The notes under the pieces: generated by a model
Seen by the model: only the letters and a program-made list of their open reading frames with translations
Databases searched by the model: none
Told to the model about the DNA's origin: nothing
Part shown: piece after piece, positions 15,440-59,655 of the stretch
Numbering within the stretch: the first letter of the stretch is position 1
Layout of the letters: each line of letters opens with the position of its first letter
Translations under genes and position numbers: made by a program
Assembly (NCBI GenBank): GCA_951406725.2
Contig: OX597821.1
Span: 69,068,001-69,132,000 of the forward strand
Length of the DNA: 64,000 nt
DNA from: Octopus vulgaris
Taxonomy: Eukaryota
Direction of reading: 5' to 3'

Positions 15440-15530
15440 TTTTAGTACAATCGTTTCATACAAGGACAGGTTTTATTAAAAGTTGCAAAAATTACAGCAT
15501 ATAAACGTGTCCCGTACTCATCAGCTAAAA
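15440..15530 (-). ncRNA. Type I hammerhead ribozyme motif with 60-nt stem II
   Basis: UUUUAG CUGAUGA GUACGGGACA...UGUCCUUGUAU GAAAC GAUU GUA^CUAAAA. Complete core, 6-bp stem I, near-palindromic stem III ACGAUUGU. Confidence 0.8.
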
Positions 15531-15829
15531 TACATGTGAGTTCTCTAGACATCCTAGTGGTTGAGGCTATACTCATGAAGTAATGTAGATAATTAAGTAA
15601 CATAAACAGATTTCAAAAGTTCATTAAAGTTCTTTAAAGATGATGTACAGTCTTATCACAGAATTTTAAAAAAGTCTTAATAGCATCACAGAGAAGGTGA
15701 CCTAATCCATAGTGCACATATGAATTTCCAGAGATATGATGAGGGATTACATACTCACAGAAGACAAATTTATCCATTGTTAATTACAACGAGGTGGGTT
15801 TCAATTCCTGCTTATTAGCATTACAGAGA

Positions 15830-15956
15830 TTTTAGCTGATGAGTACGGGACACGTTTATATGCTGTAATTTTTGCTGATGAGTACGGGACACGTTTATAT
15901 GCTGTAATTTTTGCAACTTTTAATAAAACCTGTCCTTGTATGAAACGATTGTACTA
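15830..15956 (+). ncRNA. Rearranged copy of the same hammerhead
   Basis: Same core. 39-bp tandem duplication (15835/15874) gives two CUGAUGA boxes, and the 3' strand of stem I is shortened to CUA. Confidence 0.55.
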
Positions 15957-16119
15957 TCCATTCTTGTTGCTTCATTCTCGCTTATAATCACCCCACATTA
16001 CTGTATTGTTAAATCAGTATAGTTTTTTTTGGTGCATCTAAGTTAGGTACCATATTCAAGTAAATTCATTTAAATTAACTTGAATCTTTATTGCTTTTTA
16101 TATATATATATATATATAT

Positions 16120-16181
<62 letters not shown>

Positions 16182-17891
16182 GTACATATATATACATACA
16201 TAAGCATATATATATATATGAAGGGCTTCTTTCAGTTTGTGTTACGGAAAACATTCAAGGTTTTGGTTGGCCGGGGCCTATAGAAGACACTTGCACAAGG
16301 TGCTACGTAGAGGGACTGAACTCAAAAACTATGTGGTTGAGAAATAAACTTCATACCACACAGCCATGCTTGTGCTACCCTCAACGTATCTATGTTTTTA
16401 TGTATTTCACAAACTTCTCTCTATGTTAATATTACATGCTTTGGCTCTGCAGTGTTAGAAGACTTCCTTACTGTTGCTCTGGCCATAGTTGTTACTTGGT
16501 ATACCATATGCCTTTCTATCACAATCAGTACCAGAAAACCCTGAATGTAAATAAAATGATGGTAGCCTTTATTTTATCAGTGCTCATCATCCCATATATA
16601 CTTGGTCATCTATGTGATAGGTTGGTACCAAACTAAGGTTAATAATGTTTGTAATATGCACGACTGCAGTATATTACTGGTCCTCATTTTATTAACACTT
16701 ATATACATACATGAAAAATAAAACTATCCTTTTGTATCCAAGAACATGAAAGGCAATTTACTGTGAGTCTTTGTCTTAGAGAAAAAACATATTTTTTGTT
16801 AATAGGCTTTGTGTGTAAAAAACTTATGAAGCTGAGCTCCAAGTGACATCAATGAACTACCAGATACAGTTTTTGGTGTGATTTCACCTCTTCAGTTACA
16901 GATAGCATGTAGGTCATTTGCAGTTAAGCCAGAACTTTTATTGATCATCATCATTATCACATATAAAAATTTAAAAAATAATCCTAGCAGAGTATGAACT
17001 CTGATCAGTGAAACTCCAAGCTAGGCACCAAACTGTATCCAATATAGCGTCTACCATTTACTGGCTCCATGATATGTGAGACAAGTACACTGGAATCAGT
17101 TGATCCTAAGACTTGGTTTCAGTTTCCAGTTGTATGTCATTTCACTTCACATTTACTGGTAATGCTCTTGAACACCACACAACTTCATTTGTTCTCCTCT
17201 GTAAATATCAAGTATGACTGGCTTTGAGTGCCTGTTTATAAAACTAAGATCAGTTTTCCATAGTTATGCAGTGTGCTCTACTTTCTCAGATAACCCATGT
17301 CAGTTATGTTCTGTTTACAACTAGGTTATCCATCCAGCCATTGCCACTACGCACAAGACTTTAACCCCTTATCTCTGGAGCTATTTCTAATCTGACATCT
17401 TTGAAGAAATCTTTTTGATATTTCCCTCAGTTTTCCTCTTTCACTTTTATAAAAAAAATGTCCTTCAACACTTGGGAATCTTTATTTGTTTTGCTTAGAA
17501 TTTGTGGTCTCTCTTTTTTCATTTCTATAGACACCTCCTATAAGTTAATTCCACTCTAATTTTGCAGCAAAAGCCATATATCTAGTTGACCTGTTTCTAG
17601 TTTTCTTTGAAACAACAGTCTACCATAATTTAAATACAAAGTAACCTCTACATAGTCACTGATCCTACTAGAAATAGCAGCCAAATCTTTTAAATCACAT
17701 CCTGCTATCTAAAAGAAAAAGCGAGACATAATGGGTATTGTGATTATAGGTACAATGTCTGAATACATATCTTGTCTAGTAGGATTTTAAATACCAGCAA
17801 AATATCCCCTGAACAACAAATAAACTTCAAATTCTCCACTCTATCTATTTGAGTTATTTCAAAGTTGACTGACCTCTTTCACCTATAAAGC

Positions 17892-17937
<46 letters not shown>

Positions 17938-18947
17938 TAGAAGCATACTCTTGACAGGGAGACTTAGTGGTGAATAATAAATAGTTACATTTGATTTGCA
18001 ACACTTCTGCAGTTACTTTAGTTTTGGGGTAGTTGTTTTTACAGTTTAATGCAGTTTATACATTTAACCATTCAACTATGATGTAAGACTGAAACTTGTT
18101 AGTTTAAACACACTGAGACAAGTGGAGTCATGAGCTTTGTCCAAGGACAAAAATCCGTGGCTGTACTAAGATTTGGACTTTTGATTATTTAGTCACCTGT
18201 CCACCAACTTAATTTCTCTCTCTCTATTTTCCAGGTTTACCCTGGATAAGATAAATGTTTGATGGATTAGTTCTTGCTACAACTGGATGCTTTTCCTGTC
18301 TCTGATCATCTTGAAGTAGAGGTTTAGGAACATAATGCCAGTCAGACAAACTTGAGAAAGCAGATTTATTTGTTTTATTCAGAGATATTGTACATTGTAG
18401 TGGCTGTGACAGTGACACTCACATCAGAATAAATATGGTAGTGATATTAAGCATGGTGTTCATAGCCCAACAGCTTAGGCTCTGATACCCATAATGCAAC
18501 AGCTGTGACATATACCCATTCTATAACACCTTTGGGTGTATTGCTCACACCACATAAGCTGGGTAGTGATGCACTCACCACAATTGTGATATTTATACCT
18601 ATGCAGTGCAACAGTTGTAATGGTTAGTTTACATTACTCCACAAGGAGCATAGATCTGGTTTCTCTGGCGTATATCTTCTTCCTTGGTTGGGGCGCCAGT
18701 CTGCTACAGGATTACTCATTTTTACAAGCTGAGTGGACTGGAGCAATGTGAAATGAAGTGTTTTGCTCAAGAACACAACGTGTTGCCCAGTCCAGGAATC
18801 AAAACCATAATCTTATGATCATGAGTCCAACACTCTAACCTCCACATTATAATAGTGGCACCTATTCCAAAATAACTGATAGTAACACCTACATCACAAT
18901 AGCTGTTTTTATGGTATGGCTATCACTGTCATAAGTCATATCTCTTA

Positions 18948-21900
18948 TGATTGATTGATTGATTCTAGTTTCAGCTTATGAGCTGTGGCCATGCTGGGGC
19001 ACCGCCATTTGGTGTTGCTACTTGGTTTCACTTCATGGAGGCTTTCTAGCAACTGCTATTTGGTGCATGAGAGAGTTCGATGCAGCTGCCCTCATCTGCC
19101 CCTCCTGCCGTGAAGTTGGTTCATCTGGGACACCTGACAGGAAGAGATCCAGCTTCATTTTAAAGACATCTGTATCCACCCCATGCAGGTCTCTCAGGTT
19201 CTTCGGGAGGATATTGAAGAGCTGTGGGCCTCGGAAGCCCAGGCTATCACAGTATCTTGTCCTACATCTTGATGGCAGGTTTGGAGTCCTAGGCACCACG
19301 CAGTGGCGCCCAGTTCTGGCATTTGCGTAACTCTCGATGCCAAAGTTCAGGACACTTCCCTCCAGGATCTTCCAGATGTATATTATGGCATATCTTTCCC
19401 GCCTACGCTCCAGGGAATATAATTTTAATCTCTTGAGTCTTTCCCAGTAGCTTACATTCTGCATAGAGGCTATCTTCTTTGTGTAGCTTCGTTGGATCGC
19501 CTCAAGTTCTGTGATAAACTTGACACTGGATGGTGACCATAGCTGAGAGCAATAGTCAAAGTGGCTTAGGACAAGTGTCTTCCAGAGGACCATCATGGTT
19601 TCTTGTTCTCTTGTTCTAAAGGTTCTAAGAATCCATCCAGCCAGCCGTCTACATTTCATTGTCAGTTTAGCAACATGTACATGAAAGGTCGCGTCATCAC
19701 TCATGTGAATACCCAGGTCACGCACTGATTGTGCCTCTGGGATTGCAATCCCTCCGGGTCCAGTGTATTCATTGGGTATTGCATTCAGTTTTGCATGCTG
19801 ATAGTATAAAGCTTGAAACTTTCCAGCATTGAACTGCATGCTATTCTTTTCAGCCCACTTGTATATTTCGTCCAGCTCACATTGCAGGTGTTTAGTGTCC
19901 TCAGGGTTCTGTATTGCCTGTGAAACTTTTGTATCATCTGCATAACTTGTGATCGTGGCTCTCTGCGTGGCTGAGGGCATGTCTGAGAGGGCCATTATGA
20001 ACAGTAGTGGTCCCAGAACAGTGCCCTGCGGAACACCGCTCACTATTTGTGTGTTAATGGAGGTGGCCCCATTGGCTACTACCACCTGACTTCTATCCTT
20101 CAGAAAGTCATGAAGCCATTCTCCCAGTTTTCCAACAATGTTGAGATCACGCAGTTTGTGACATATCATTCCATGATCGACTTTATCAAAGGCCTTTGCA
20201 AAGTCGAGATATATCACTTCCACATTTGAGTGGTTGAGCAGCCGTTTCAGCACCCAGTCATAGTGTTGTAGGAGCTGAGTTAAACAGCTTCTCCCTGGTC
20301 GGAAACCATGTTGGGTGTCGGGCAGCAAGTCATTCTCTTCAAGGAAGGTGATCAGCTTCCTTCTGACTATTCGTTCCATGACCTTGCTGATGTGTGAGGT
20401 CAGAGAGATAGGTCTATAGTTCTTGGCTTCCGCTCTGCTACCTCCTTTATGAATGGGGCATATTTTACCTTCCTTCAGTTTTCCTGGAAGTTTGCCAGCT
20501 GCAAGGAAGCTCTGAAAGAGGAACTGCAGTGGTCTTGCTAGGACTCTCTTACATGCTTTTAGGAGGATTGCCGGGAATCCATCGGGGCCAGTAGCTGAGT
20601 CTGTTTTCATTTCATCTATAGCCTTGGTTACATCGTCTTCATTTATATCGATGTAATCTATCGTCGCCGCCTCTGATTTTATATCTGCAGTGGTAAAAAA
20701 GTCAGTTGGATTGGTGATTTGGAGATGCCCAAGGGGTGGAGTGAAAACACTCTTGAATTGCTCATTCAGTATTTCACTTACCCTCATTGGTTTTTCTGTA
20801 AGTGTGCCATCCTTTTCGAGGAGTGGCCCTATTCTACAGTGCACTGTAGCTGTTTCTTTGGCATACCTGTAGAAAGCTCTGGGGTTAGATTTTATGTTTT
20901 CTACAGCCCAGGCTTCTTTGTCTGCTCTTTCTTTTTCATGGGAGAGTTGCAGACATTTTTCGATTTCCAACAGTTTTATTTTTAGGCGGGACTTTTCACT
21001 GCTTTCAATCTGTTTGTTTAGGCGATTTGAAAATTTCGTACGCCGTCTCATTAAAATTTTCCTCTCTCTGGGGATTTTGTTCTTGTGTACAGTGGCCTTT
21101 CTCTCTGGGACACATTTGTAGCATATGGCTTGCATTACAGACATGAATTGTTGAAGTTTCACGTCGATGTCTGGCGAGGAGAGACATTCAGGCCAGTTTT
21201 GTTTGAGGATCTCTTTCTCAATTTGTTTCCAGTTTGCCTTATGGTAGTTCAAGCTGGAAAGATTTTGAGGGTTTCTTGTAGGCTGCATGTCCGTGCTCTC
21301 TTTTGGCCCGTACATGGTCAGCTCTACCATGTTGTGATCCGAGAGTAGTGTCGGTGTCACTTTCACATTATGGATGAGATCCATGTCATTTGTGAAGCAG
21401 AGATCCAGTGTGTTACCTGCCCTGGTTGGTTGGAGTATTACCTGCTCCATGTACAGGGTGTTGATGAGGTTCAGGAGGGACCTCGCCTGTCCTCGTTCAC
21501 ATCTTGTCATTCCTGGGAGAGAAAGGCCCTCGGGCCATCTGACATTGGGCAGATTGAAGTCTCCCATAAGAAGCACACCTATGTGTTGTTCTAATGTGGT
21601 TAGAATTTCTTCTATTTTTATAAGGCAGTCTTCGAACTTGCCCACATGGCTTGGGGCATCTGGAGGGCGATATGTAGCACACACAACTACATCAAGTTGC
21701 CTAATATGTACAATTAGTGTGTCACACACCGAGTTTGAGTATGACAAGAGGACCTGGGGTGTGAGGTCCTCACGGATGTACATAGCAACACCTCCATGAC
21801 TCCTTTCTTTCCTGTCGGTCCGTAGTACAGCATACTGTGGTATGTGTAACTCCGCATCTGCTATGTCCGGTTTCAGGTGCGTTTCTGTAAGTGCTATGCA

Positions 21901-22000
21901 TAAGGCTTGATTGCATGCAACAAAGTCTCTCAGGAACGGGATCTTTGTCCTGTTACTGAGTGTTTGCAGTCCTCTGATGTTCAGTAGGAGTATAGCCCTG
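18948..22000 (-). mobile_element. CR1-group (CR1/L2/Crack-like) LINE, 5'-truncated, ORF1 absent
   Basis: APE+RT ORF, ~70-bp 3' UTR with a stem-loop, (AATC)n tail at 18948-18964. Possible short TTATGA target duplication. Confidence 0.9.
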
Positions 22001-22071
22001 AGTATTATGACATCACTTGGTGTAATGTTATATTGCTTCCACAACTGTTCCAGTTGTTGAAATGTGGGCAT
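19033..22071 (-). CDS. LINE ORF2: apurinic-like endonuclease + reverse transcriptase (1012 aa from first in-frame ATG)
   Basis: Endonuclease motifs LLNIRGL, ALTETHL, YRPP, GDFNLP, TLDL, SDHN. RT motifs NYRPISLTS, QHGFRPGRSC, YLDFAKAFDKV, GVPQGTVLGPLLF, YADD. No stops or frameshifts. Confidence 0.92.
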   Translation of the reverse strand: MPTFQQLEQLWKQYNITPSDVIILRAILLLNIRGLQTLSNRTKIPFLRDFVACNQALCIALTETHLKPDIADAELHIPQYAVLRTDRKERSHGGVAMYIREDLTPQVLLSYSNSVCDTLIVHIRQLDVVVCATYRPPDAPSHVGKFEDCLIKIEEILTTLEQHIGVLLMGDFNLPNVRWPEGLSLPGMTRCERGQARSLLNLINTLYMEQVILQPTRAGNTLDLCFTNDMDLIHNVKVTPTLLSDHNMVELTMYGPKESTDMQPTRNPQNLSSLNYHKANWKQIEKEILKQNWPECLSSPDIDVKLQQFMSVMQAICYKCVPERKATVHKNKIPRERKILMRRRTKFSNRLNKQIESSEKSRLKIKLLEIEKCLQLSHEKERADKEAWAVENIKSNPRAFYRYAKETATVHCRIGPLLEKDGTLTEKPMRVSEILNEQFKSVFTPPLGHLQITNPTDFFTTADIKSEAATIDYIDINEDDVTKAIDEMKTDSATGPDGFPAILLKACKRVLARPLQFLFQSFLAAGKLPGKLKEGKICPIHKGGSRAEAKNYRPISLTSHISKVMERIVRRKLITFLEENDLLPDTQHGFRPGRSCLTQLLQHYDWVLKRLLNHSNVEVIYLDFAKAFDKVDHGMICHKLRDLNIVGKLGEWLHDFLKDRSQVVVANGATSINTQIVSGVPQGTVLGPLLFIMALSDMPSATQRATITSYADDTKVSQAIQNPEDTKHLQCELDEIYKWAEKNSMQFNAGKFQALYYQHAKLNAIPNEYTGPGGIAIPEAQSVRDLGIHMSDDATFHVHVAKLTMKCRRLAGWILRTFRTREQETMMVLWKTLVLSHFDYCSQLWSPSSVKFITELEAIQRSYTKKIASMQNVSYWERLKRLKLYSLERRRERYAIIYIWKILEGSVLNFGIESYANARTGRHCVVPRTPNLPSRCRTRYCDSLGFRGPQLFNILPKNLRDLHGVDTDVFKMKLDLFLSGVPDEPTSRQEGQMRAAASNSLMHQIAVARKPP

Positions 22072-23357
22072 CCGTTGTGTGTGTTGTGTTATATCACTTC
22101 CCGCTGTCAATTAGAATCATGTTATTGTAGACCTGCCAATTATTCCAATTTCAATCTAATGACTTAGTTAAGATAAATGTAATTTAGCTAAGTATTGTTT
22201 TGAATTAGTGGTTGATGTCTAAGTTAACACTCACCTACATTATATTCATTCACTTATCTAGTGCTTACATTTGACTATCTTGCCAGATGCTGTTTTTTTT
22301 ATTTATTATTATTTGATTTTTTTTTTTTACTTTTTGAATTTTTATGGTTTCATCAAAGGAGAGGAGGCAGCATCATTGTGACCTTTGCAGGACCTCCAAG
22401 ATTGGTGCAAGGAGGGGAAGGGAAGGAGAAATCACCACTTGTGGGTTTGATGCTAACCACTAGTATAGCCCTGCTGGAAGTCTGTGGTTGCAGGTGGGCC
22501 GGCAAATAAATAGGGCAGAAAATACAGCAATATATTTAAACCATCACACACACACACACACGTGTGCGTGCGCACATGTGTGTGTAGGCAATACAATGGA
22601 CTTGGGCCATGCCAAACTCTTGTTATATCTGAAAGCAAGCTTCTTCCTTGTGTAAAATTCAATAACACAAACAGTGACTCTTTGCAAGGGAGGGTGTGTT
22701 ATAGAACACAACCCATCAGCTAGAAATAACTGTCAAATATCCTTGTTTTCTATTTTAAATAGTTTCTCTTACTCTAGGTACCGATTTAGGGTCTATGGCC
22801 TATGGGGATATTGAATAGTAATGTTCCAGGTTTTACTAGATGGTTCCTTAGATTCTATATCATCATCATCAACCCTTGGCCATTACTGTGTCATGTCTTA
22901 TGACTCATAGGACCAGATACTTGATTTCCATGGCATATTAGTGACTGAGATCACAAATCTTTTTCCTGAATGGGATGCCAATCTGTCATAGTGTATCTAT
23001 TACATAGAGCAATGTGAAATGAAGTGTTTTGCGGAAGAACACAATTTACTACGCGCTTGAGGTATTGAAATTACAATCCTACAATCTCGAGTTCAACACC
23101 CTAGTTACTAGGCTATTCTCCTTAGATTAGAAGTACTTTATTATTTTTTGCTTTTGTTTTCACAGTCTTACTGAATATCATTTATGTAATATCAGCACTT
23201 TGTTAGTTGGTTAATTTTGTTTCTACTTGTAATTTCTGCTTGTATAATGCAAATTTATTTTCTCAGCTTTCAGTTTATGGTGTTTCATGATATAGTCAAT
23301 TTTTTTTTTTTTTTCATGTTTAAAAGAATTAAGAAACATTAAGAAACATAAAAATAA

Positions 23358-23572
23358 TCCTTTCTACTATAAGTATGATGCCTGAAATCTTTTAGGGGTG
23401 TGGGACCGGTCAATTACATTGACCCTAGTACTCAGCTTACACTAATTTCATCAACCCCAAATGGGTTAAAAAAACGAAGTCGACCATGACAGAATTTGAA
23501 CTTAGAATGTTGGGATGGATGAAATGCTGCTAAGCATTTTGTCTGGCACGTTAACAATTCTGTCAGTTTGCT
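23358..23572 (-). mobile_element. tRNA-derived SINE with GGGGTTGATAAAATAAGTACCAG-type central domain (Meta-domain-like)
   Basis: Homologous to 47247-47455, 48087-48300, 51460-51627 and 58591-58785. Confidence 0.55.
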
Positions 23573-24443: not shown

Positions 24444-24493
<50 letters not shown>

Positions 24494-27400
24494 CCACCTG
24501 CTGAATTGAAGATACTTAGAGATTATCAGTCTCAAGTTAAGCGCAAGTCCTAACCTATTCATTCAGTTAGGTTTTTATGTTGTGTTATGAGTTGACCTGA
24601 GTTAAGGAATGTTTAAAAGGAATGATTTAACCAGAAAGCAAAAAGTTGAAGCACGTAGTAGTAGTGGTGAGTAAAAAAAAAAAAATTTGTAATGATTAAA
24701 TAGATTCAAAAGTTTGAGATGATAAAAATAGTTGAGGTGGTGGTAGGTGCTGGTGTTTACTGCTCTTAATCTTTCATACATCTGAACTTCTTGTAGTATC
24801 AGTATCCTCTTTTTATTGATACTAGTGATATCACGTATTATGTAGCTGGATTTGAAACTCTGATACCACTTAAAGGCTGCGGAATAAATGGTGAGATGTC
24901 TGTCTGTCATTGGTTGAAAAGCTTATAAAGAAGGTTCAGCTAGTCTTGTTATGAACTATTCTGTTATATCTAAATACTATGCTCTGGTGCACATATAAGT
25001 GTATCACACATTATACTGTATTGTTATACCATATACATAAACACAAATATACCACTCATATATGACACTGTATGGCACACAAATTCCTATATCATACACT
25101 TACACTTGATTTTCTATACTCTCTCTCTCACACACACACTTACAAGCTATTCCTTTTACTGTGTTACCATAAAATATTTCTATAAATCAGGTTATCTGCA
25201 TAAATGTTGAATGAAGCAAGTGTTTTACAGCTGGAGGTCTGTTCCTATCATCAGACTTTATTGCAGAAGGCCTTTTGGCTAGTGCATTGCTTTACTGGGG
25301 TCCAAACTGTTACTTCCTGTCAACGGCTTGTTTCTCAGAAATGTTTAATGATTGTCGGTATTTTTCACAGAAACATGTTACCGCATAGTTAGTAACCTAA
25401 ACTCATGTGTAGGGTAATACTTCTGAAAGGTATTTCAACATTTGGAACATAATCTCACACCCTCTCTTTAAGTTCAATAGGTGGCATCCACTGAGTACAG
25501 AGTGGCTTACATTCTTTTTGCTTGGTGATTGGCACAATGACCAAGAAAATCCTTAGAATCTTAGATTCATTTCTTCTTACTCTTTCCTTGCAGCACAACC
25601 CTTCCTTGTTAACAACAAAAAAACAGTTCAACTTATGATAGAAATAGTGGCTAAATCAATATCATATTACATAACCATCTTAAAAATGGACTCAGTGGAC
25701 AATGTCATCCTGCATAAGCTCAAATAACTGGATGCTCATGGTTGGAATGCTTTTGATCAAACAGTGTTGATCTATCATCGTCATCATTGTCATCATCTAT
25801 GCAATGAGGTCTAAAGTCTACCAAATGAAAGGTTACTTAAATCTAAGAGGTGTGCAATAGATATTCAAAATGGGTATCAATCCTCACATAAGCTATATCT
25901 TTGATAATTTGCAAATATTGTGATTATTAAATGCATGCTGGAGACCACAACAATACTAAACATTGTACCGGATTATCAAGCAACTGTTGAAGACGTGTAT
26001 TCTTTTACACTCCATTCAAACGATGCCATGCTGTCTTTTTCTTTCATCTTTCCTGGATAGAATAAGTATCTGTCAATTTCTAGGTTGATTTTTTTTTAAA
26101 GACAATATTTCTTTCAAGGACATCTAGCATTATTGTCACTATCATGCCAAAGGCAGAATAATTACCATGTTGGCCCTTAATGCTTAACAACATTTCTTAT
26201 AGCTCTTTACATCCTGGGTTCAAATTCCATCAAGAGCAACTTTGCTTTCCTTCTTTTGCGGTTTACAAAACTAATACCCATTGAGCACTGGGGTTGAGAT
26301 AATCAACCAGCACCCTTCCTACACAAAATTTCAGGCCTTGTACCTGTAGTAGAAATAATTGTTACTATTATGCTTAATGATGAAGAGAGCATAAAATATA
26401 TTGGCAGCTAACAGTTGTTGATGCTTGTATCCTGTCACAAATACTAGCTCTGTTTGTAGCTAAGACACTTGAGTCTGAACAGCTAAGTTTATGTAGCTGT
26501 GAGTCATCTGGACTATAGTATTAGTAGTAGTAGGGGGTGGCATGTGCTGTAAAAATGAGTTGCAGCATCCACCATTTGTTGGTGAATTCCTACTCCTCCT
26601 GGTGGCTGACATCTCTGCCCCACTTGGGTGACAAGCCTCCAATCCATGGGTCAGTTTGGACAGCCATTTGATGGTGAGAATTTTACAAGGTCAAAGTGCA
26701 AATTCTACTTCAACCTCGTTTAGTTACTTTTTACCATGTGCAGAGAAAACATTGAGTCTTTTCTTTGACATACTGGTCCCAACACAACACACCGTCCGTC
26801 CTGGGAATCAAATCAAGCCCACTTTCTGATGATTGTGAGTGCAACACATTTACCACATCTTGGCTATAAGTCCACCTAATTTTGATTATTACTCACCAGT
26901 GTAAACAGTGACAGTTCTAGAGAATAGACTATTGATTTGTTGCCTTGCAAAATGCTTTGTTCAATTTTTCCCAGTGTGTAAAACTACCTGCAATATGCTG
27001 CCTTACCCAAGAGAAGTTCTATCTCTTTTATTTCACTATCCTGCTACAGAAAAAGAATGGACTTTTAACTAAGGATTAAGAGTGTACGTTGCTGATCACT
27101 GTGAGGCACTATCTTAGCGGGGCAAATGGTACTGGATGGTTTAATACAGAGTTTGTAAACTTTCTCAGTGTTGCTGATAAGAATGAATGTTTACTTCCTA
27201 ATATTAATGCCTAGAGAAATATGTTAAGAGAAAATATATTAAGGGTTTTAAGGAATAGAGAGGTGAGCACATTGGTTAATGGCTGTTGGTTTAACCTCGT
27301 AGGATTTAATATGAAGCATACAACTCAACACAGCTCTTGTAACTTGAGATTTAATTGATATTCCAGCTATTTTGAAGCTTTATGGTTTTTTTTTTTTGCG

Positions 27401-30249: not shown

Positions 30250-30817
30250 TCATCATCATCATCATCGTTTAACGTCCGCTTTCCATGCTAGCATGGGTTG
30301 GACGGTTCAACTGGGGTCTGGGAAGCCCGAAGGCTGCACCAGGCCAGTCAGATGTGGCAGTGTTTCTACAGCTGGATGCCCTTCCTAACGCCAACCACTC
30401 CGAGAGTGTAGTGGGTGATTTTATGTGCCACCGACACAGGTGCCAGACGAGGCTGGCAGACGGCCACGCTCGGATGGTGTTTTTTATGTGCCACCGACAC
30501 AGGTGCCAGACGAGGCTGGCAGACGGCCACGCTCGGATGGTGTTTTCTTATGTGTCACCGACACAGGTGCCAGACGAGGCTGGCGGACGGCCACGCTCGG
30601 ATGGTGTTTTGTTACGTGCCCTCAGCACGGAGGCCAGTCATTGCGGTACTGGCTACGGTCACGTTCGGATGGTTTTCTTATGTGCCACCGGCACTGGTAC
30701 CACAAGGATACAAATTCCATTGATGTTCATCTATTTTGATTTGGTTTGATTTGATTCGATACGATTCGATTCTCAATGATTGATTTTGATTTTTCCAGTT
30801 TCAGCTAATGAGCTGTG

Positions 30818-32640: not shown

Positions 32641-32675
<35 letters not shown>

Positions 32676-32738
32676 CAACCGCAAAATAACATTAATTCCG
32701 CAAACCAGGAGAAAATTAAAAAAACATTTACCCTGTAA

Positions 32739-32843
32739 TTTCTTATACGATGCACCGTTTCATCTATTGTTTAATGGTAAACTAACCTGATTAAATTAAA
32801 TCAAGCCAATCATCCATAGGCCGATAGATTCGTCAGTAAGAAA
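32739..32843 (-). ncRNA. Type I hammerhead ribozyme motif with 68-nt stem II
   Basis: UUUCUUA CUGACGA AUCUAU...AUAGAU GAAAC GGUGCAUC GUA^UAAGAAA. 7-bp stem I, canonical CUGANGA/GAAA/GUA core, near-palindromic stem III. Confidence 0.88.
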
Positions 32844-33222
32844 CAGCCAGATCCGAGCAGATATTATCACGAGGCACCTCTATCCCTGCCTCGGCAATAT
32901 CTGACCTAAAATTTTCAAATCATCGCACTCGCGCCAAATTTATCGGCAGCAAATATAAGCCGCCGATTCCATTACGGAATTAACCAGAAAATTCATAATT
33001 AATCAATATAGGGTGGCAAAAAATTTCGTAGAATTTATTTGCCACCAGCGGCCTAGTGGGAAAAAATTAAATAGTCATAGACCATTTATAAGTTCAACAT
33101 CACAATCAAGGAATGGCCATAATAGGCCATTCACCCACTAGAAATAACAGCCAAAGCTTCAACCGCAAAATAACATTAATTCCGCAAACCAGGAGAGAAT
33201 TAAAAAAACATTTACCCTGTAA

Positions 33223-33327
33223 TTTCTTATACGATGCACTGTTTCATCTATTGTTTAATGGTAAACTAACCTGATTAAATTAAATCAAGCCAATCATCCA
33301 TAGGCCGATAGATTCGTCAGTAAGAAA
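33223..33327 (-). ncRNA. Second tandem hammerhead ribozyme motif
   Basis: Identical to 32739-32843 except one G>A in stem III (GAAACAGUGCAUCGUA). Confidence 0.8.
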
Positions 33328-34117
33328 CAGCCAGATCCGAGCAGATATTATCACGAGGCACCTCTATCCCTGCCTCGGCAATATCTGACCTAAAATTTTC
33401 AAATTTTTTAAAAAAATTTTCTCCTGGTCTATGGTCTATGACTATTTAATTTTTTCCCACTAGGCCGCTGGTGGCAAATAAATTCTACGAAATTTTTTGC
33501 CACCCTATATTGATTAATTATATATATATATATATATGTGTGTGTGTATATGTTTGTGTGTCTGTGTTTGTCCCCGTAACTTAGCGGTTCAGCAAAAGAG
33601 ACCGATACTATAAGTACTAGGCTTCCAAAGAATAAGTCCTGAGGGTCGATTTGCTCAACTAAAAGTGGTGCTCCAGTATGGCTGCAGTCAAATGACTGAA
33701 ACAAGTAAAAGAGTAAAAAGAGTAAAGAGAGCTTATATATGTGTGTATGTCTTTCTGTTTGTCCCCCACTAATGCTTGATGTCTGGCATTGGTTTATTTA
33801 CATCCCTGTAACTTAGCATTTCAGCAAAAAGGATCGATGGAATAAGTAACAGGCTTTATAAATATTGGGGTCAAGGTGGTGCCCTCAGCATGGCTGCAGT
33901 CAAATGACTGAAACAAGTAAAAGATAGAAGATATTCAAAGCACCAGTCTAAAGTCAAAAATGAGCAACAGGCCCTCCTATTGAGCTGGCCTCTGATGCTA
34001 CAGAATTTCAACTGTGTATGCCCGACTGGTGTTTAGATGTGATGTATGTTTGATGTCCATGGTAAAAGTGGACTGAAGTGTGTGTGTGTGCATGCTTAAG
34101 ATCATTTCAGTGATTAA

Positions 34118-48774: not shown

Positions 48775-49030
48775 TTTGTCTTTGTTGATTGTTTACTCTG
48801 TTGTTTGTTCGTTCGAAGCCCTCACTCATCACAAATTTTATATTTAAAAAATTTTCTGGATGCAGCTGTCTTCTGAAATTTTCCTATCTTGTCACCGAAA
48901 GCATGAAATAGGGAGTAATAAAACAGTCAACAACTGAGGAGGAGTTAGACTTCTTTTGGTATTTTGTCCAGTACTTGTCTCTACTTATGTGTTTACGTAT
49001 TTTTCACTTGTTGGTGATGTCCTGTACTTA
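48500..49030 (+). mobile_element. Penelope-like pLTR remnant (bipartite) with decayed minimal hammerhead
   Basis: Colinear homology to 62008-62390(-). Contains GTTTCTGACAAAGAGCTCCGCTCGAAATGTTAAA. Confidence 0.55.
48604..48638 (+). ncRNA. Decayed minimal type I hammerhead motif
   Basis: GUUU CUGACAA A GAGC-UCC-GCUC GAAAU GUU AAAU. Two CpG-type transitions away from CUGACGA...GAAACGUU. Confidence 0.5.
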
Positions 49031-49874
49031 ATGTGTATTTTTTATTTATTATATATATATATATGAAATCATCAGTACCATCATCATTTCATTTATATCT
49101 TTTTTTTTAATGCTAGCATGGGTTGGCTGTGTATATATATAACACACCACACATGCACAGTCTGTTGTGAATCAGGTATATTTTGTGGAAGTTTAAATAA
49201 CAAAATGGCTCCATTTTCATAGAGAAGCATTAGTTGGTTTCATTGCCAAAGGGTTAATCATATTTTAATAGTTAGCTTTTTTTGCAATTGTTGCACAATG
49301 CTGTTCGCTCATATAGTTTTATTCACTTGAATAATTAAATATTCATATAATTGGAGACAAATGTGAAAAATTGTTTTTCAACTTTAACTAATTAGAGCTC
49401 TGATTAGTGGGTTGTTTAGTATTTTATAAATTTTAATTGCTAATTTATTAAATTTTTTTTTATGGCCTTGTGCCTATGTTAGAATTTTTTATTTTATAAA
49501 TTTTGGGTCTCATTCATTTCATTCATGCATTCGTCATCATTAAAAAAACATTAACTATGAACTAAGCTCTGGTTTATGAGAGTTTAGTTGATATGATACG
49601 ATACCACATTGTGTTATTGAAAGATTGGGGAGCAAAGAAGGCAAGCAATGGTAACAGTAACAACAGCAATAATAGTTCTTTCTACTATCAACATAATACC
49701 TGAAATTTTGTGTGGGAGGGGACTACTTGATTATGTCAGCCCCACCGGTGCTTAACTGGTACTTATTTTCATCATCCCCCAAAAGGATGAAATGCAGATT
49801 TTTGACTTAGACAGAAGAAATGCTGCTAAGCATTTTACATGACATGTTAATCTGCCAGATCATTGCCTTCATAT

Positions 49875-51737: not shown

Positions 51738-51879
51738 GGCATAGGAGTGGCTGTGTGGTAAGTAGTTTGCTTACCAACCACATGGTTCCAGGTTCAGTCC
51801 CACTGCATGGCACCTTGGGCAAATGTCTTCTACTATAGCCTTGGGCTGACCAAAGCCTTGTGAGTGGAAGAAGCCTGTC

Positions 51880-51930
<51 letters not shown>

Positions 51931-52124
51931 CATACGTTTGTGTGTCTGTGTTTGTCCCTCCAACATCGTTTGACAACCGATGCTGGTGTGTTTACGTCCC
52001 CGTAAAGAGACCGATATAATGAATACTAGGCTTACAAAAGAATAAGTCCTGGGGTCGATTTGCTCGACCTAAAGGCAGTGCTCCAGCATAGCCACAGTCA
52101 AATGACTGAAACAAGTAAAAGAGT
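51738..52124 (+). mobile_element. Dominant SINE, full length
   Basis: GGCATAGGAGTGGCTGTGTGGTAAG head to CAGTCAAATGACTGAAACAAGTAAAAGAGT tail. Confidence 0.88.
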
Positions 52125-52609
52125 ATTTAAAAATAGATATTTGGTATATACAACAGGAATTATTCAATGCTCACTATAATCTTGTGTTTAGTGTAGTATG
52201 TACATACTGTTTGTCTCTCTTTGGTTGAGGGAAATTTGTATGAGTGGTCAATATGTGAAAATGATTGTAAAATAAAGGATCTTAAGACAAGCACAAGGCA
52301 GGTGGTGGTGGCGGTGGTAGTAGTGGTAGCGAGTGTGAAGCTTGATTATTTCATTTATTTATACCACTAATGTATCTAAGACATTATGACACGTCACTCT
52401 CCTACAAATATGTAACTGTGTTAGCAATTGATATAATTACTTTTTGATTTTTCATTTATATATTTGTGAAAATAAGATCTTGTATTTAGAAGGGTTATTA
52501 TTGCAGTATAAAGAAGCGATAGGGATGAATGCCATCATTGTATGAAGAAATAGATGAAAAAAAAAATTTGGCCAAGTCAACAAGGGCAAACAAATCAATG
52601 AAGTTGTTA

Positions 52610-52800
52610 TGGGGTTTGCTCAACCTGCTAGAAATAGCAGCCAAATCTCCCTCAACTCACATTTTACCACGTTTACAAAAATAGAAAGACAGCTTGAATA
52701 ATGTACTCTGAGACACACTGTGTTCAAAAAAATTTAAAAAAATTGGATAGTCACAGTCAAGATTTCTTTCACCATAGGCTTGATCAGGTCTAACTTGGGC
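52610..52800. repeat. Unclassified ~200-bp interspersed repeat (CTAGAAATAGCAGCCAAAT family), representative copy
   Basis: Same motif set at ~1960-2120, 2840-3040, 3690-3880, 9350-9550, 9580-9800, 17660, 23700-23900, 25570-25770, 34630-34820, 41735-41940 and 45880-46085. Confidence 0.7.
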
Positions 52801-52834
52801 AAAATAACAAAACAATGAAAAAGGAAATAAATGC

Positions 52835-53345
52835 AGGCGTGGCTGTGGGGTTAAGAAGCTTGCTTTGCAACCATGTGGTTCTGGGTTCAGTTCCACTATG
52901 TGGCACCTTGGGTAAATGTCTTCTAACCTCTGGGTTAACTAATAACATCTTAGTAAATTTGGTAGAAACTGTGTGGAAACCCATCACATATATATATATA
53001 TATATCTTAATGTCAAACAACTGAGAAAGGAGTGCTCAGTACATATTGTAAGGGATATGGTTTTTCTTTTAGTTTTATTAATAAAAAAAGCTATACATGC
53101 ATGAGTGTGTGTGTGTATTTGTGTCTGTGTTTGTCACCTCACCTCTGCTTGACAATTGGTGTTGGTTTGTTAACATCCCCATTACTTGGTCGTTTGGCAA
53201 AAACAACCAATGGAATAAGTATCAGAATATAAAAAAATTCAAAATCAAATGTAATTCCTGGGGTCAAGTTGTTTGACTAAAATCCTTCAGGGCGGTGCCC
53301 CAGCATGGCCACAGTCCAATGACTGAAGTAAGTAAAAGACAAAAG
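52835..53345 (+). mobile_element. Dominant SINE with ~85-bp insertion in its microsatellite
   Basis: Head 52835-52985, foreign segment 53007-53090, 3' half to the tail. Confidence 0.7.
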
Positions 53346-54828
53346 AATATTTTATATTAAGTAGGCTGTAACACTGAAATGGAAAAATACTGCATGTTGT
53401 TATTTGAAATTAAATAATAATCTTGAAAGGTCTACAGACAGAAATAATTAGATATAGGACCACCCACTGCGACAGATCAGCATCCCATCCAGGGTAGGTG
53501 TTGTGCTGTAATCTCAGTCGCTTATTCACCATGGAAACTGGATTAATCTCCGACGTTATGAGTCCTTGGGCTCATGATAGATCTAAGAAGTTGGACCACC
53601 CACCAGGTCTCAGGGGCACCCGAAAAGAGATTCTATTAAATAATAATGTCAAGGCTAAATCATCCTGGCTGGGCCCCATCCCATCTAAGGTTGTTGACTT
53701 ATGGCTGAAATGACTAGTGGAAGCCAGATATTTTTTAGAGTCATGGTTATGGGAAGTAATGGCATTCATGCTATTTCCCAAGACTATTATAAATAGAAGT
53801 GAAATGAATTCAGAAGCCTGTAACCCTCCCCCCCCCCAAAAAAAAAATCATGTCATCAACATGGCTAGCCGAGTGCTCTCTCTCTTTTACTCTGCAACAT
53901 TTGTAGACATATGGAAATGTAAAACTAAGTTAATTTAAAATCTGCAGTAGAAAGAGGAGGAGGAGGAATCGAGGGAGAGAAGGAAATTTTCAAGTAATAT
54001 CCAATATCAGCTTGCCATTTAGAGTATGGTAACTATTCCAACAGTTCCATATTGTATCTCCTGATAGGCTGAACTATAATAATAACTGCAGTTGTTGTAT
54101 GTACTCTATTGACTGCATTCATTATAACCCACACGTTAACTCCTATCTGTCGTGATGCTTACTATATTATTTGTGGTTGAAATTAAGTTAAACTTTTGTC
54201 TTCTCTAAGATGTGTAATTATTATGTAGGATATTTGATATACTGGATCTGTGAACTCAAATAGCCGTTTTGCCGGAATTTAAATAGAATGAAAGGATTAT
54301 AAAAATAAAAGAAAAACTTTATATATATATATATATATATATACACTCTTTATATATAAAATGCAATTTGATATTTAGTTCAAACAGGAAATTTTCATCA
54401 ATGTTGCAAGTTAGGAGAAAATAAGATTTACTTTTAAGACTTGTTCATGTATCACAGACCAGAGAAAGAGAAGAAAAGGAAGAAAAAAAAATATAAATGA
54501 AATGTGTCAATTCTATGGGTATTATAAACGTGAAGGATTTATATGTGGTGACATATTTAAATGATTGTACAGATTTATTCGTTTTATAATCTGATTTTAA
54601 AACTACAAACAGCCATGTACGGGAGGCGGTGACGGTTGCTTTGGTGTTAGTGGTGTAGGGGAATTCAATTGTGATGGTCTCAATGGGAACAGTAGGTCCT
54701 TAACACCAGTAATTTCTCTTCTTTAACATCACCTTAGTCTATATTAAGAGACATAAAAACTCAGGGGAAAAATAGGAGGCTTGATCTAGTGCCATTTTCA
54801 AATTTGCCGCCTCCTCCTCCTCCTCCTC

Positions 54829-54877
<49 letters not shown>

Positions 54878-55259
54878 CACCACCACCACTGCTGCTGCTA
54901 CTATTAACAGTAATAAAGATAATCCTTTCTACAATAGGCACAAAGCCTTAAATTATGGGGGCAGGGGCAAGTTGATTCTATCAATCCCAGTGTGTAACTG
55001 GTACTTATTTTGACCACAGTAAGGCTCTCTTTGATAATTAAGATATCATCAATTAATGCTTGTTGGTTTTTAATATACTAACATGTTATATGCAAGTTAC
55101 AAAGTTGTAAATTTAAAATGTGTCCTTTGAAATGGTTTGCCATCTTTTTAGGGTTCAAGAAAAATACCTGTGGGTATATCAGAATATTTTTATTTGTTGT
55201 TTCCATAAAAGACAACATCAGATTGAATTCTCAAGATTGATGTTGTAGCAGCTGATTAA

Positions 55260-55480
55260 CCCTATAACATTTAAACTGGCAATATCCGTACCAAATATTT
55301 TACCAGTTTTATGTTCAAACTGACCAGATCTAGCCTCTTACACCTACCCTACAATGTCATTCTCAAAATAAGCAATCACATCATTGAAATCTTAAAGCTA
55401 TGAGATAATACTTGATGAATTGAAAACAGTGCAAATAAAGAGGCATTAAACTTGACAGAGTAATTGGAAGATCCAAAGAG
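55260..55480. mobile_element. piggyBac-like MITE
   Basis: TTAA|CCC ... AAAGAG|TTAA; homologous to 34118-34337. Confidence 0.75.
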
Positions 55481-57854
55481 TTAAATATTTGGCATAATCA
55501 ATAAGTCAAGAGTTCATATGTTGCAAAAAGCTGTGATTTATAGCTAAACATGGGTACAGTGGCTGAATGGATGAGCTGTCATCTTCTAAACTCATGTGAT
55601 ATGGTTTTGTATCTTGGCACTAGTTGTATACAATACGATTCTTGAGCAAGTTACTTAACTCCATATTCTGTGATATTGATTGAAAATGGGCACTATTAGG
55701 TTATGTTTGTTATTAACTGCTATTTGAATAAATACCATGTATTACTGGATACATGATATTTGATGTTATAAGCTAAACAGATTAGAAAAGGGAAGCTTCA
55801 TTTATAATTGATGATTTGAAATTTGATTGGTTATACAGCTGTTGGTGAAGGTATCTGGCTAAGTGATTAGGGTGTTGCACTCATGATTGCAAGATCATGA
55901 TTTCAATTCCCAGGTCAGGTAGTGCATTGTATTCTTGAGTTAAACACATCATTTCAACTTTCTCCAGTCCACTCAACAGAAAATGAGTAACCCAACAATG
56001 GACTAGTGTCTCATTAAGGGAGAATGTTGTGATCTTGGTCACTCATATACCATGGAAACTAGGTGACCAGCCCTATGAATCTTACAACTCAAGACTGTAA
56101 TGTCCAGCAGGACTTGCTTTGCTTTATAATACTGCTGTTGATAGAATATCTTCATAATGTCTATTCTCGAACATAGCAAAGACAAATCTCAATCAGAATT
56201 GTTTCATCTCCAGGAAAAGAAAAAGAAAATGTGTTGTGCATTTGCACAAAAACACACCTGCAAAAGCAATAAAAGCAGGTTTCTGCAACAACATTCAATA
56301 CCCCATGTACTGTGGATCAAAACTACATGATATGACATGTATTCTCTGTAAAAGTAACAAAAGGAAATGATTATACAATATAGAGTATTAAAAATTAAAG
56401 AAAAGGAAGAAATAGGTCAAAGAAAATAATTCCAGTAGCTAATATTAATCTTATATGTGCAATGATAACTGTAAGTTTATGCTTTAGTCAGTGTCATACT
56501 CAATAAATGTTTATTGTAAACTTAAGGTGGAGTACAAATCAGATTTCTTGGTCAACACATTTATTGCTTTGTTTACCTGAAAACTGGAATAATACAGTAC
56601 TTTTGCTGCAGTAGACCCACCTCTTGCCCTTCACCCATTCTCTTATCCCTCTCTTTGCTCCCTTCTCTTTGTTAGTCGGGTAGGTAGTTACAGGTGCTAA
56701 TTTCATTTCAATTCTTTTGCTTTAATATGTGCCATTAAATCTATTGCTGGCTATTATATCTTCCTAGCTCCTATTATCCTGACTTCTGGCTCTCATCCAT
56801 ACTCCACTTCCATGTTTGTCTTCATCTGATCAAAGTGCTCCCCTGCTTTCTGCTTTCTTATTACTGAAGGCTTCTTCATATTTATAGCCATTATTTTAAG
56901 ATTAACATCTACTTTCATCTCTCTCATTGCAGACTTGAATTGTATATATTTTTTATTTATCTGATGAGGAAGGATACTTATCTCTCTTGCATATGAAGAT
57001 ATATATATATATATAATATATGTATGTATGTATGTATATGTGTGTGTTTGAACTATTAAACGTAGCAAATACCTTGTTGTGACCTTTTGTTTTATTTTCA
57101 TTTGATATTTTTTTTTATTTAGTATCATACATCTAGTCAAATTTGGGGATAATAACATGAAATGTTTTTTGATCTACATTTAGAAATAGATCAAGGGAAT
57201 TAAAGGTAAATAGAAAACTGTCTTCTATATCCTGTATGAACCCTTCCAGTTGTATGAAATTATCCCTCACCTCTTTCACACACACATACACACACACATC
57301 ATTATCTGTTTTTTATTAATAATTAGCAGAAGTTACACAGGACTCAGAGTAGATAGATAATGCATTATCCATATGGCATTATGATTGTTTCTTATTCCAG
57401 AGCAATCCAAGGAAATACCATTATCACCGATATATAAATGTAAACCCCCTTTGATTTGAAATGAATTTGATAAGTGTTAGTATATGAAAGTAGGGGGTCC
57501 TTGAGTCACTCCGTAACTCCTGATTATTAATAATAAAAATATATATACTCGTGTTTTGAGTTTTATTTTCCTGTTTGGATCACCAAACCTATTTATCATC
57601 ATCATTTAAGCTGGAGGGCTGCACCTGACTCCAGTCTGATTTGGTATGGTTTCTATGGCTGGATGCCCTTCCTAATGCTAACCACTCAGAGAGTGTAATG
57701 GGTGGTTTTATGTGCCACTGGCATATATATATATATACTTTTTTTTCTGTGATATATATTCTTCCATTCCTTTTGTTTGGAGGTCATCACTTATTCTCAG
57801 AAGACTTTCTAATTAGTAGTACTTCAGTACTATATTAGCATTGATGCAGTAGAT

Positions 57855-58325
57855 CAGGGGTGGGAAAACCTCCACGAGTACTTTCTATTGCACCCACAGG
57901 CCGATATACTTGTATGTACAAAATATGATAAATTTTTCAATTATAAAATTTATACAATAATTATATGCCTATTTGCGACATAGGACATGTTTCTACTATG
58001 ACTTAAAATAGTTAGACTCAAATAGAAATCATCCGGTAATTGCCATTTGAATGGAAATTTTCTTTTCACTATAAAACACATATTGCTAGGTTTGCACTAT
58101 CTCCTTGAGACCCAATTACACTTTAGCTGAAAAATATAGAATACCGCATAAGTAATATAAACGTCCTAAATTCAGTGGCGGCGTTAATGAAGATGTTACA
58201 TGTTAATTTAATGTGTTAAACTTATCTTTATTAATGTATATTGAATTATACAATTTGTGGTCCACACACAGACCTTTTTCATTGGAAATTTTTGTCCACC
58301 ACACTAAAAAGTTTCCCCACCTTTG
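57855..58325. mobile_element. hAT-like MITE
   Basis: Imperfect 15-bp TIRs CAGGGGTGGGAAAAC and GTTTCCCCACCTTTG. No clear 8-bp TSD. Confidence 0.5.
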
Positions 58326-58559
58326 ATTTCTTAGAAGTCAAGTGACCATATAATGGTTCCCTTTTTGGTTTGCATACTTCTTTTGGCTTTCTGGTCACTT
58401 GTTTTTATTGAGTGAGAATTCCTCTGATTTTTCTAGCACATCAAATATTTTGGTACTCTTCATCTAATTATTCTTTTATTCTTTTACGTGTTTCAGTCAT
58501 TTGACTGTTGCCATGCTGGAAAACTGCCTTTGGTCAAACAAAGATTTTGTTCTTTTTTC

Positions 58560-58591
<32 letters not shown>

Positions 58592-58982
58592 GGCAGCAAG
58601 CAGGCAGTCATGAGAATGCTGGACAAAATGCTTAGCAGTATTTCGTCTGTCTTTACATTCTGAGCAAATTCCTTTTCATCTTTGTGGGGTTGATAAAATA
58701 AGTACCGGTTGAGTACTGGCGTCGATGTAATTGAGTAGTCCCCTCCCACCAAATTTCAGGCCTTGTGCCTTCAGTTGAAAGGATTATTTTTATTATTATT
58801 TGACTTCTCAGAGCTCTTGATCTTACTTGCTCAGGTTGATTCTGTGAGAGCAGACAGCAGTCTGTTGTCAGAGATCTCACAAGGTCTCTTTCCACAAATT
58901 ACGAGCTTTGGTACTTTGATTTTAACTTATCTTGGAAGGCACTCAACACCCAAGCACCAACCTCAAAATTCTAGCTGTCCCC

Positions 58983-59041
<59 letters not shown>

Positions 59042-59231
59042 CTTTTAAATTCATTTATGGTAACTTTAAGAGTATGCATATATAGCTCCTATTTCATTAT
59101 GCTAGTTACCATCTAATGATATTGACTAGTGTGTCAGTTTTTCAGGGTTGCATCATAGTTATTCCGATATAATGTAGGATAAATATAATAGTAACAATAA
59201 TTCTTGGATGAAATTTATTAATATTTAATAC

Positions 59232-59364
59232 ATTGCTACACGTGTTTCCACAAATCACATGATTTTAACATCAGTGCCCATGTCCTTGAGATTAGTACAG
59301 TGTAGTCCGTATTATCTGTGGGCATTAGGTTGATCATCATCATTGATTCATTTCATCAGGCGAT
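59232..59364 (-). ncRNA. Type I hammerhead motif with ~104-nt stem II
   Basis: AUCGC CUGAUGA [104-nt hairpin] GAAAC ACGU GUA^GCAAU. Perfect palindromic stem III ACACGUGU; one stem I mismatch. Confidence 0.65.
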
Positions 59365-59521
59365 ACTGAATTAGTGGATGAATCACAGAGGGATGTTTAT
59401 CCCTTCTAGCTAGTATGAAGGCCTGTCTAGCTAGTATGAAGGCCAATCTACATAGTATGAAGACCAATCTAGCTAGTATGAAGGGATAAACAGCTCTCTC
59501 TGATTCATTCACTAATTCAGT

Positions 59522-59655
59522 ATTGCCTGATGAAATGAATCAATGATGATGATCAACTAGATGCCCACAGATAATATGGACTACACTGTATTAATCCCAA
59601 GGATTACAGACTCTGATGTTAAAATCATGGGATTTGTGGAAATGCGTGTAGTGAT
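59522..59655 (+). ncRNA. Inverted sister hammerhead motif, more decayed
   Basis: AUUGC CUGAUGA [105 nt] GAAAU GCGU GUA^GUGAU. Confidence 0.5.

Follow-up and report, generated by a model that had tools for sequence, protein, structure and literature searches.

The 64,000-nucleotide stretch of the Octopus vulgaris genome that was analyzed here (assembly GCA_951406725.2, contig OX597821.1, positions 69,068,001 to 69,132,000; hereafter, the window) contains copies of three repeat families, designated F1, F2, and F3, whose type I hammerhead ribozyme motifs have a very long stem II and point to Penelope-like elements (PLEs) (Table 1). We scanned the window with a descriptor in which stem I has 4 bp or more, stem II closes, and the length of stem II is free. 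It returned four matches, and no match occurred in any of 40 block-wise dinucleotide shuffles. A preliminary description of the window had reported a greatly expanded stem II of 60, 68, and about 105 nt; this was confirmed, with lengths of 60, 68, and 104/105 nt. That description had also placed a complete core, a stem I closure, and a palindromic or near-palindromic stem III at three sites. All three sites hold the core and stem III, but the F3 copy on the minus strand fails the descriptor, with a C-A mismatch at the third pair of stem I; this pair forms in most of 36 aligned family copies. Apart from this mismatch, the type I core (CUGANGA...GAAA...UH) is closed by three stems and ends in stem I. 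A second F2 copy, which was absent from the earlier list, lies in the window as well.

Stem III is a palindrome or near-palindrome in each family, with self-duplex energies of -5.8, -17.5, and -10.3 kcal/mol for the three families, and the 1- to 2-bp palindromic stem III of minimal PLE motifs, able to pair two copies, is present. A canonical short stem II with a loop-stem I contact was not found; stem II measures 60 to 105 nt, and no contact was seen by eye in the alignment of the F1 lineage. When isolated, the arms of F1, F2, and F3 each fold as an irregular rod with paired ends. Folding of the whole motif was better than that of shuffled sequences only for F2 (z of -3.4, compared to -0.6 for F1 and 0.0 and -1.7 for F3). 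An Rfam scan of the window gave no match to a hammerhead family, and neither did a scan of three control loci; because two of these carry short-armed motifs, the miss in the window is not due to arm length alone. Additional loose matches to the core pattern at 13658-13689 (+), 48994-49075 (-), 3938-4032 (+), 895-972 (-), and 25165-25254 (-) failed the stem test and are possibly decayed copies or chance occurrences.

Table 1. Hammerhead motifs and the repeats that carry them, in window coordinates
Feature	Positions	Strand	Details
F1, 5'-truncated 3' end (pseudo-long-terminal repeat [pLTR]), ending in (TA)n	15405-15829	-	99.5% identical to the 3' end of the full element in L091
F1 type I hammerhead	15440-15530	-	Core 15524-15446; stem I 6 bp; stem II 60 nt, containing AAUAAA; stem III ACGAUUGU; predicted cut between 15446 and 15445
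F1, inverted 5' piece with longer 3' tail	15830-16107	+	Second hammerhead damaged: 39-nt duplication, stem I 3' strand shortened
F2 retrozyme, non-coding	32675-33521	-	484-bp unit, partial tandem; inverted 5' piece 33431-33521; (TA)n at both ends
F2 hammerhead, copy 1	32739-32843	-	Core 32836-32746; stem I 8 bp; stem II 68 nt with 13-bp apical helix; stem III ACGGUGCAUCGU
F2 hammerhead, copy 2	33223-33327	-	Core 33320-33230; 484 bp from copy 1
F3, 3' end (pLTR and tail) of older Hydra-type element	59040-59432	-	Copies 82-88% alike; core 59359-59237; stem II 104 nt; stem III ACACGUGU
F3, inverted copy	59480-59702	+	Core 59527-59650; stem II 105 nt; stem III palindrome decayed

At least 40 further places in the genome are 99.8 to 100% identical to F1 over 420 bp (40 scored among 1,294 candidates). 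In the full element at L091, the hammerhead lies on the sense strand both before and after a reading frame for a reverse transcriptase (RT) and a GIY-YIG endonuclease, an inverted piece lies on the 5' side, (TA)n stands at the ends, and the unit measures about 4.8 kb. Insertion at (TA)n, a pLTR, and an inverted 5' piece, all of them traits of the Hydra clade of PLEs, are present in F1. An intact single open reading frame (ORF) of 954 amino acids (aa) at L131:2486-5350 (-) carries the RT followed by a C-terminal GIY-YIG domain, and its RWK, DKT, CxCx5C, GIY-YIG-like, and CxxC/CxH motifs agree by eye with the published Hydra alignment; these features are listed for the clade in section 11 of PMC8557442. 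The Pfam match of the protein to GIY-YIG was below the cutoff (E value of 0.0017), and Pfam did not match its RT domain; Pfam and PDB searches with the F1 protein, the protein of a short-armed Hydra family (L309, see below), and profile A1 likewise gave no RT match. On its sequence, the F1 motif is classified as the pLTR hammerhead of a young, autonomous Hydra-clade element. The F1 protein has long Asn-rich, low-complexity insertions between the RT and the endonuclease (954 aa, compared to about 710 to 730 aa in most relatives), and open frames differ among F1 subfamilies, reaching about 1,090 codons.

We examined the wider F1 lineage at 40 loci that were chosen by RT similarity alone. Down to an RT identity of about 54%, their terminal repeats have arms of 51 to 60 nt, with one 36-nt variant, and a profile search of these loci recovered 43 full pLTR copies. 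F1 insertions end 37 nt beyond the predicted cut in 15 of 36 cases and 151 to 155 nt beyond it in another 15. Since the insertions extend past the site, the RNA that is copied is probably uncut at the 3' motif, as has been reported for an element of Anolis (PMC11167929).

The F1-lineage arm might carry the element's poly(A) signal 17 to 26 nt before the ribozyme site, so that ribozyme folding would compete with 3'-end formation. AAUAAA or AUUAAA occurs in 40 of the 43 pLTR copies, in two registers and down to an RT identity of about 54%, and a U/GU-rich tract follows the F1 site. The F1-lineage pattern has 10,804 matches in the genome compared to 15 for the control, although these matches are not independent evidence, because by eye they are mostly F1-lineage copies. 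The F2 arm also has AUUAAA. However, F3 and most other families have no hexamer, AU-rich arms yield such hexamers easily, and the hexamer is paired in some folds. We consider this explanation unlikely for the F1 lineage, and as a general cause of long arms it is ruled out, since the hexamer is not enriched across families (6 of 31 arms, compared to 4.8 expected). In four contig sets presumed to be RNA, the F1 rows listed showed neither a loose poly(A) end nor an intron-like junction, and ends did not pile up; contigs cannot show starts, ends, strand, or level.

F2 is non-coding. Arrays of F2 elsewhere in the genome reach about 9 units, and many of them contain inverted pieces and are bounded by (TA)n; the units have no ORF, and an exact pattern of the F2 hammerhead occurs in 195 copies genome-wide and has no control match. 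Tandem non-coding units, each with a type I hammerhead, fit the definition of a non-LTR retrozyme, and F2 is assigned to this class by sequence. Like the metazoan non-LTR retrozymes (PMC7229834; bioRxiv 2026.07.22.740005), F2 is non-coding and low in GC (38%), is repeated in tandem with a single type I hammerhead in every unit, and has a PLE-like insertion structure. It differs from them in its 68-nt stem II and 484-bp unit. It has likely been mobilized by Hydra-type PLEs. A search for the parent of F2 gave only two short matches of 74 to 85%, both to a family with a 43-nt arm. The insertion in the window holds a 91-bp inverted repeat (33010-33100 and 33431-33521), with the inverted 5' piece reaching the (TA)n flank. 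Other tandem hammerhead arrays, with units of about 505 and 545 bp and a stem II of 25 to 34 nt, lie at G000:C1:13046490-13049456 and C1:33099609-33101550 and represent further retrozyme families.

A few hundred bases upstream of the F3 motif, the same strand encodes a Hydra-type endonuclease, a join that is seen in three genomic places (L070; the C22 locus, where L065, L071, and L095 are one place; and L081). The L070 endonuclease is 39% identical to P0015. No RT was found upstream of the truncated L070 copy (extended locus L308) or of L195 and L201. We regard F3, from its sequence, as the 3' end of an older Hydra-type PLE family. The PLE or retrozyme context proposed in the preliminary description applies to all three families. 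It had further been proposed that a core no better conserved than its flanks would speak against ribozymes. Across 36 F3 copies, conservation is 0.955 in the core, 0.921 in the arm, and 0.931 in the flank, and the core is intact in 21 and broken in 12 of 33 copies. A core barely above the arm and flank is what neutral decay after insertion would leave, which makes the comparison an unfair test for old insertions; across F1 subfamilies the core is invariant. Where the two inverted F3 halves meet, a 21-bp tandem repeat (3.8 copies) occupies 59405-59484.

The three families had been called unrelated. Their RNA sequences are indeed unrelated, but F1 and F3 are both parts of Hydra-type elements, and trees do not reject a single origin of their long arms. 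We built RT and endonuclease trees from Hydra-like rows only. In the RT tree (quick method, 48 rows), all 15 long-armed rows fall on one side with a support of 99 and a long-branch warning, while the endonuclease tree (33 rows) needs three changes, and yet one long-armed clade is not rejected (p-AU of 0.71).

The genome assembly comprises 227 contigs with a total of 2.8 Gb. Its octopus origin agrees with the only protein match that carried a species name, from Octopus sinensis (69% over 26% of the query), and with the SINEs of the window, which resemble octopus SINEs. We additionally searched the whole genome for CTGANGA-N(x)-GAAAC-N(4,8)-GTA, using the reversed pattern as the control. With a spacer of 8 to 24 nt there were 16,717 matches compared to 1,456 for the control, with 25 to 39 nt there were 8,529 compared to 1,724, and with 40 to 70 nt there were 37,449 compared to 3,003, a 12-fold excess; at 71 to 130 nt the count was 14,543 compared to 6,711, so nearly half of these are background. 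These are counts of matches and not of distinct ribozymes, and some overlap (L171, L217, and L220). Matches with at least 40 nt account for 42,278 of the total excess of 64,344 (66%), with about 15,300 at 8 to 24 nt and about 6,800 at 25 to 39 nt; this long-arm share may be overstated, because GUC and GUU sites, which are common in short published motifs, were uncounted. The long-armed form makes up most hammerhead-like motifs in this genome. The recurrent long-stem-II architecture suggested from the window is thus far commoner than the window reveals. Length-limited searches would indeed miss it, as had been supposed, since the core spacer of the published descriptor is 7 to 17 nt (PMC8557442, methods).

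Long-armed cores are spread across dozens of unrelated families, and the F1 lineage makes up about one-quarter of the 40- to 70-nt class: by eye, 25 of the first 100 matches belong to it, and its own pattern occurs 10,804 times. Stem III is at least 75% palindromic in 26 of the first 30 matches at 40 to 70 nt, although the pattern did not require a palindrome. The sampled genome loci form 38 clusters, 31 of them long-armed, with the sampling biased to long arms by the way in which the loci were collected. When folded, 24 of the 31 family arms close on the core compared to 2.5 expected, and z is below -2 in 15 of 31. BLAST among the 31 long-armed clusters found no common arm sequence; the arm is conserved as a closed rod, not as a sequence common to families. 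Two other Hydra-type elements in the genome have arms of 73 and 55 nt. A young Hydra family with a 727-aa protein and a stem II of 10 nt (L309, G000:C2:191030400-191033600), of which 63 near-identical full ORFs were scored, provides a natural short-armed control.

The motifs could also be dead relics or chance matches. The whole F1 and F3 motifs fold no better than shuffled sequences, old F3 copies have lost the core in 12 of 33 cases, and nearly half of the genome matches at 71 to 130 nt are background. However, the empty result from the 40 shuffles of the window, the 12-fold excess at 40 to 70 nt, and the invariant core with compensatory stem changes across subfamilies, in families with copies that are still 99 to 100% alike, speak against this. 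We consider relics or chance a highly improbable account.

Related elements from other marine samples have short arms where a motif was recovered. Among 77 metagenome loci with a Hydra-like RT from other marine samples, in which a stem II of up to 200 nt was allowed, 37 gave hammerhead matches; 44 of these 45 matches lie at 10 to 25 nt, and the remaining one is a 149-nt antisense match within an ORF. The other 40 loci, many of them short contigs, had no match and may still include long forms. In the 26 Hydra rows of File S2 of PMC8557442, the core halves are separated by no more than about 26 nt, and the hammerhead of Hydra-1_oBim has a stem II of 7 bp with an 8-nt loop (PMC8557442). The octopus elements share with the Hydra-clade PLEs of Craig et al. 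(2021; PMC8557442) the protein motifs given above, (TA)n targets, inverted 5' pieces, and sense type I motifs with a palindromic stem III near the 3' end. They depart from them in stem II, which measures 51 to 60 nt in the F1 lineage and 55, 73, and 104 nt in others. F1, at about 4.8 kb and 954 aa, also exceeds the length of <3 kb given there for Hydra elements, although "generally short" is a descriptive and not a diagnostic trait.

Similarly, the minimal PLE hammerheads of Cervera and de la Pena (2014; PMC4209133) share the minimal stem III, often an extra base on the 5' side of stem II, the predicted dimer, and the pLTR location. They occur in thousands of dispersed copies, compared to tens of thousands here, and their "larger than usual" helix II of 7 to 8 bp contrasts with a multihelix rod of 40 to 130 nt. 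A lack of contact between the loop and stem I is also described for PLE minimal motifs (PMC6155905). In two spike-moss elements, PLE-X1_sMoe and PLE-X1_sTam, which File S2 of PMC8557442 marks as deviating, the core halves lie about 50 nt apart, a precedent for a long stem II-loop; unlike the octopus class, they are two isolated motifs in plant elements without the endonuclease and not the prevailing form of a genome. The discontinuous mammalian Clec2 hammerhead likewise keeps its core despite a very large insertion in one helix, but it is of type III, has the insertion (150 to 1500 nt) in helix I, and resides in a single-copy gene rather than a retroelement (PMC6155905). Our literature search, which did not extend to Repbase and Dfam entries or to the supplementary alignments of the hammerhead surveys, all of which could hold examples, found no long-stem-II hammerheads as a prevailing class and no octopus hammerheads beyond Hydra-1_oBim and notes on Naiad; in the main text of an octopus-repeat paper (PMC13282606), "ribozyme" and "hammerhead" occur 0 times. 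What we describe is the known kind of PLE terminal-repeat hammerhead, and what is new is an arm that is expanded 3- to 10-fold and dominant in one genome. The published Naiad "half-core" cases were considered as the same architecture and set aside, as Naiad_Ovul, the one of eight cases that was read by eye, has GAAAC ahead of the 3' CUGAUGA and thus a different layout. At the 3' end of Naiad_Ovul (PMC8557442, File S5), GAAAC lies about 25 nt before CUGAUGA with flanking complementarity, by eye a permuted hammerhead-like layout.

The reading that we prefer, with a probability of roughly 0.7, is that these are hammerheads in the terminal repeats of Hydra-type PLEs (F1 and F3) and in a tandem repeat likely moved by such elements (F2), which are predicted to cut in pairs and in which stem II is likely a spare arm. 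Position, sense orientation, the link to RT and GIY-YIG (F1 and F3), core conservation, covarying stems, and abundance are features of the copies themselves. It is very probable that the motifs are PLE or retrozyme hammerheads of this kind, and the young families are probably competent for cleavage as predicted. Two motifs would pair through the palindromic stem III, either in adjacent F2 tandem units or in two pLTRs, and the element's protein would probably assist pairing or cutting; cleavage as dimers (PMC4209133 and PMC6765202) and help by a protein (PMC11167929) have been described. The cut after GUA would free a unit-length RNA, which for F2 would likely be circularized. The RNA copied back to DNA is likely to be uncut at its 3' motif, with insertions continuing for about 37 or 155 nt beyond the cleavage site. 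The ribozyme chemistry itself is probably ordinary. Stem II may require just a closed base of 4 to 7 bp, and the minimal motifs have no visible contact between loops I and II; the stem II loop may thus be a site of free expansion. Engineered hammerheads tolerate long stem II insertions. Selection would then keep the arm folded and let the core close, and single lineages could place their own signals in it, for F1 the apical hairpin and A(A/U)UAAA. This last part, a free arm that is kept folded and takes up lineage-specific signals, is proposed tentatively and has somewhat less than even odds.

The folded arm is best documented in the F1 lineage, where the core is invariant while the stems covary. 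Among 24 subfamily sequences, both sides change in 10 of 20 named pairs (4 of 6 in stem I, 4 of 5 in basal stem II, and 2 of 7 in the apical hairpin). In the structure as drawn, 88.3% of the cells pair compared to 78.6% in shuffled alignments, none of 500 of which was as good, and pairing falls from 88% to between 25 and 52% when the partners are slid along the structure. Several points weigh against the preferred reading. The tested structure was drawn from the same related sequences, using 24 of 52 distinct ones and omitting length-variant subfamilies and near-copies. The RNAalifold consensus of the F1 lineage, at only -1.66 kcal/mol, contains stem I and the apical hairpin and lacks basal stem II, and subfamilies differ in the register of the central part of the arm. 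The core is intact in 38 of the 43 pLTR copies, a count that is not independent of the core because the pLTR profile was built from an alignment that includes it. The invariant bases of the apical hairpin and the retained hexamer suggest that the F1 arm is more than spare. In addition, only 19 of 30 sampled matches at 40 to 70 nt also have 3 or more uninterrupted pairs in stem I, and no autonomous partner of F2 was found among the autonomous families compared. Cleavage of related minimal motifs is inefficient in vitro (PMC4209133), and eight of nine dimers of Xenopus retrozymes yielded no product (bioRxiv 2026.07.22.740005).

An arm that is more than spare could be a binding site for the element's own RT or endonuclease, acting as a ribozyme chaperone or in RNA selection. 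Cleavage by the Penelope-like hammerhead of Anolis requires its protein (PMC11167929), invariant bases persist in the F1 apical hairpin amid stems that covary between subfamilies, and the long-armed F1 protein has long Asn-rich insertions (954 aa, compared to 727 aa in the short-armed family). Against this, the 31 long-armed clusters have no arm sequence in common by BLAST, the F2 arm shares no sequence with the autonomous families compared, and the young short-armed Hydra family spreads in the same genome without such an arm (63 scored near-identical full ORFs). We consider a protein site somewhat unlikely.

Heavy RNA editing is known in cephalopods. The arm could be a substrate of ADAR, as the preliminary description had suggested, or of another host double-strand pathway, with the host driving arm growth in many families. 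In this genome long arms are frequent, and none was seen at the Hydra-like loci of the other samples. In F3, A>G changes at paired positions (33 of 551) exceed paired T>C changes (14 of 654; p of 0.0008), also without CpG-like sites (24 of 414 compared to 6 of 309; p of 0.013). However, there is no excess among variants present in at most 2 copies (11 of 414 compared to 6 of 309; p of 0.6), one shared site weighs heavily, and a change from A-U to G-U also preserves pairing. The F1 and F2 arms each have two sites with A>G and two with T>C, in a tally in which overlapping loci were counted twice, whereas the F3 tally was corrected. One A>G within the arm, at L091:3149, also exists as a genomic subfamily variant and was therefore not scored as editing. 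The arm helices are short, with a median of 7 bp and a maximum of 13 bp for the longest helix. The suggestion of an ADAR substrate was not borne out by these data, and a host double-strand pathway is a very unlikely cause of the arms.

A broader proposal is that octopus genomes contain tens of thousands of long-armed hammerheads because several retroelement lineages lengthened stem II independently under host pressure, that the arm is a regulatory module, and that the largest lineage switches between self-cleavage and polyadenylation through the poly(A) signal 17 to 26 nt before the cut. We find this doubtful; if true, such a switch could also terminate or cleave host transcripts that run through the copies. 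Surveys of ribozymes use short-stem descriptors, which in this genome would miss about two-thirds of GUA-type hammerhead cores (42,278 of 64,344 excess matches), and other genomes and "hammerhead-less" elements may merit rescanning with a free stem II length. Its young and probably still mobile elements of this genome offer a natural series of stem II lengths, from 10 nt to more than 110 nt, with which the role of Penelope-like hammerheads can be probed.

Elsewhere in the window, a 1,025-codon open frame at 19036-22110 (-) has endonuclease/exonuclease/phosphatase and RVT_1 domains and belongs to an apparently intact long interspersed nuclear element (LINE). A GC-rich tandem repeat with a 64-bp unit (3.1 copies, 95%) lies at 30421-30620.

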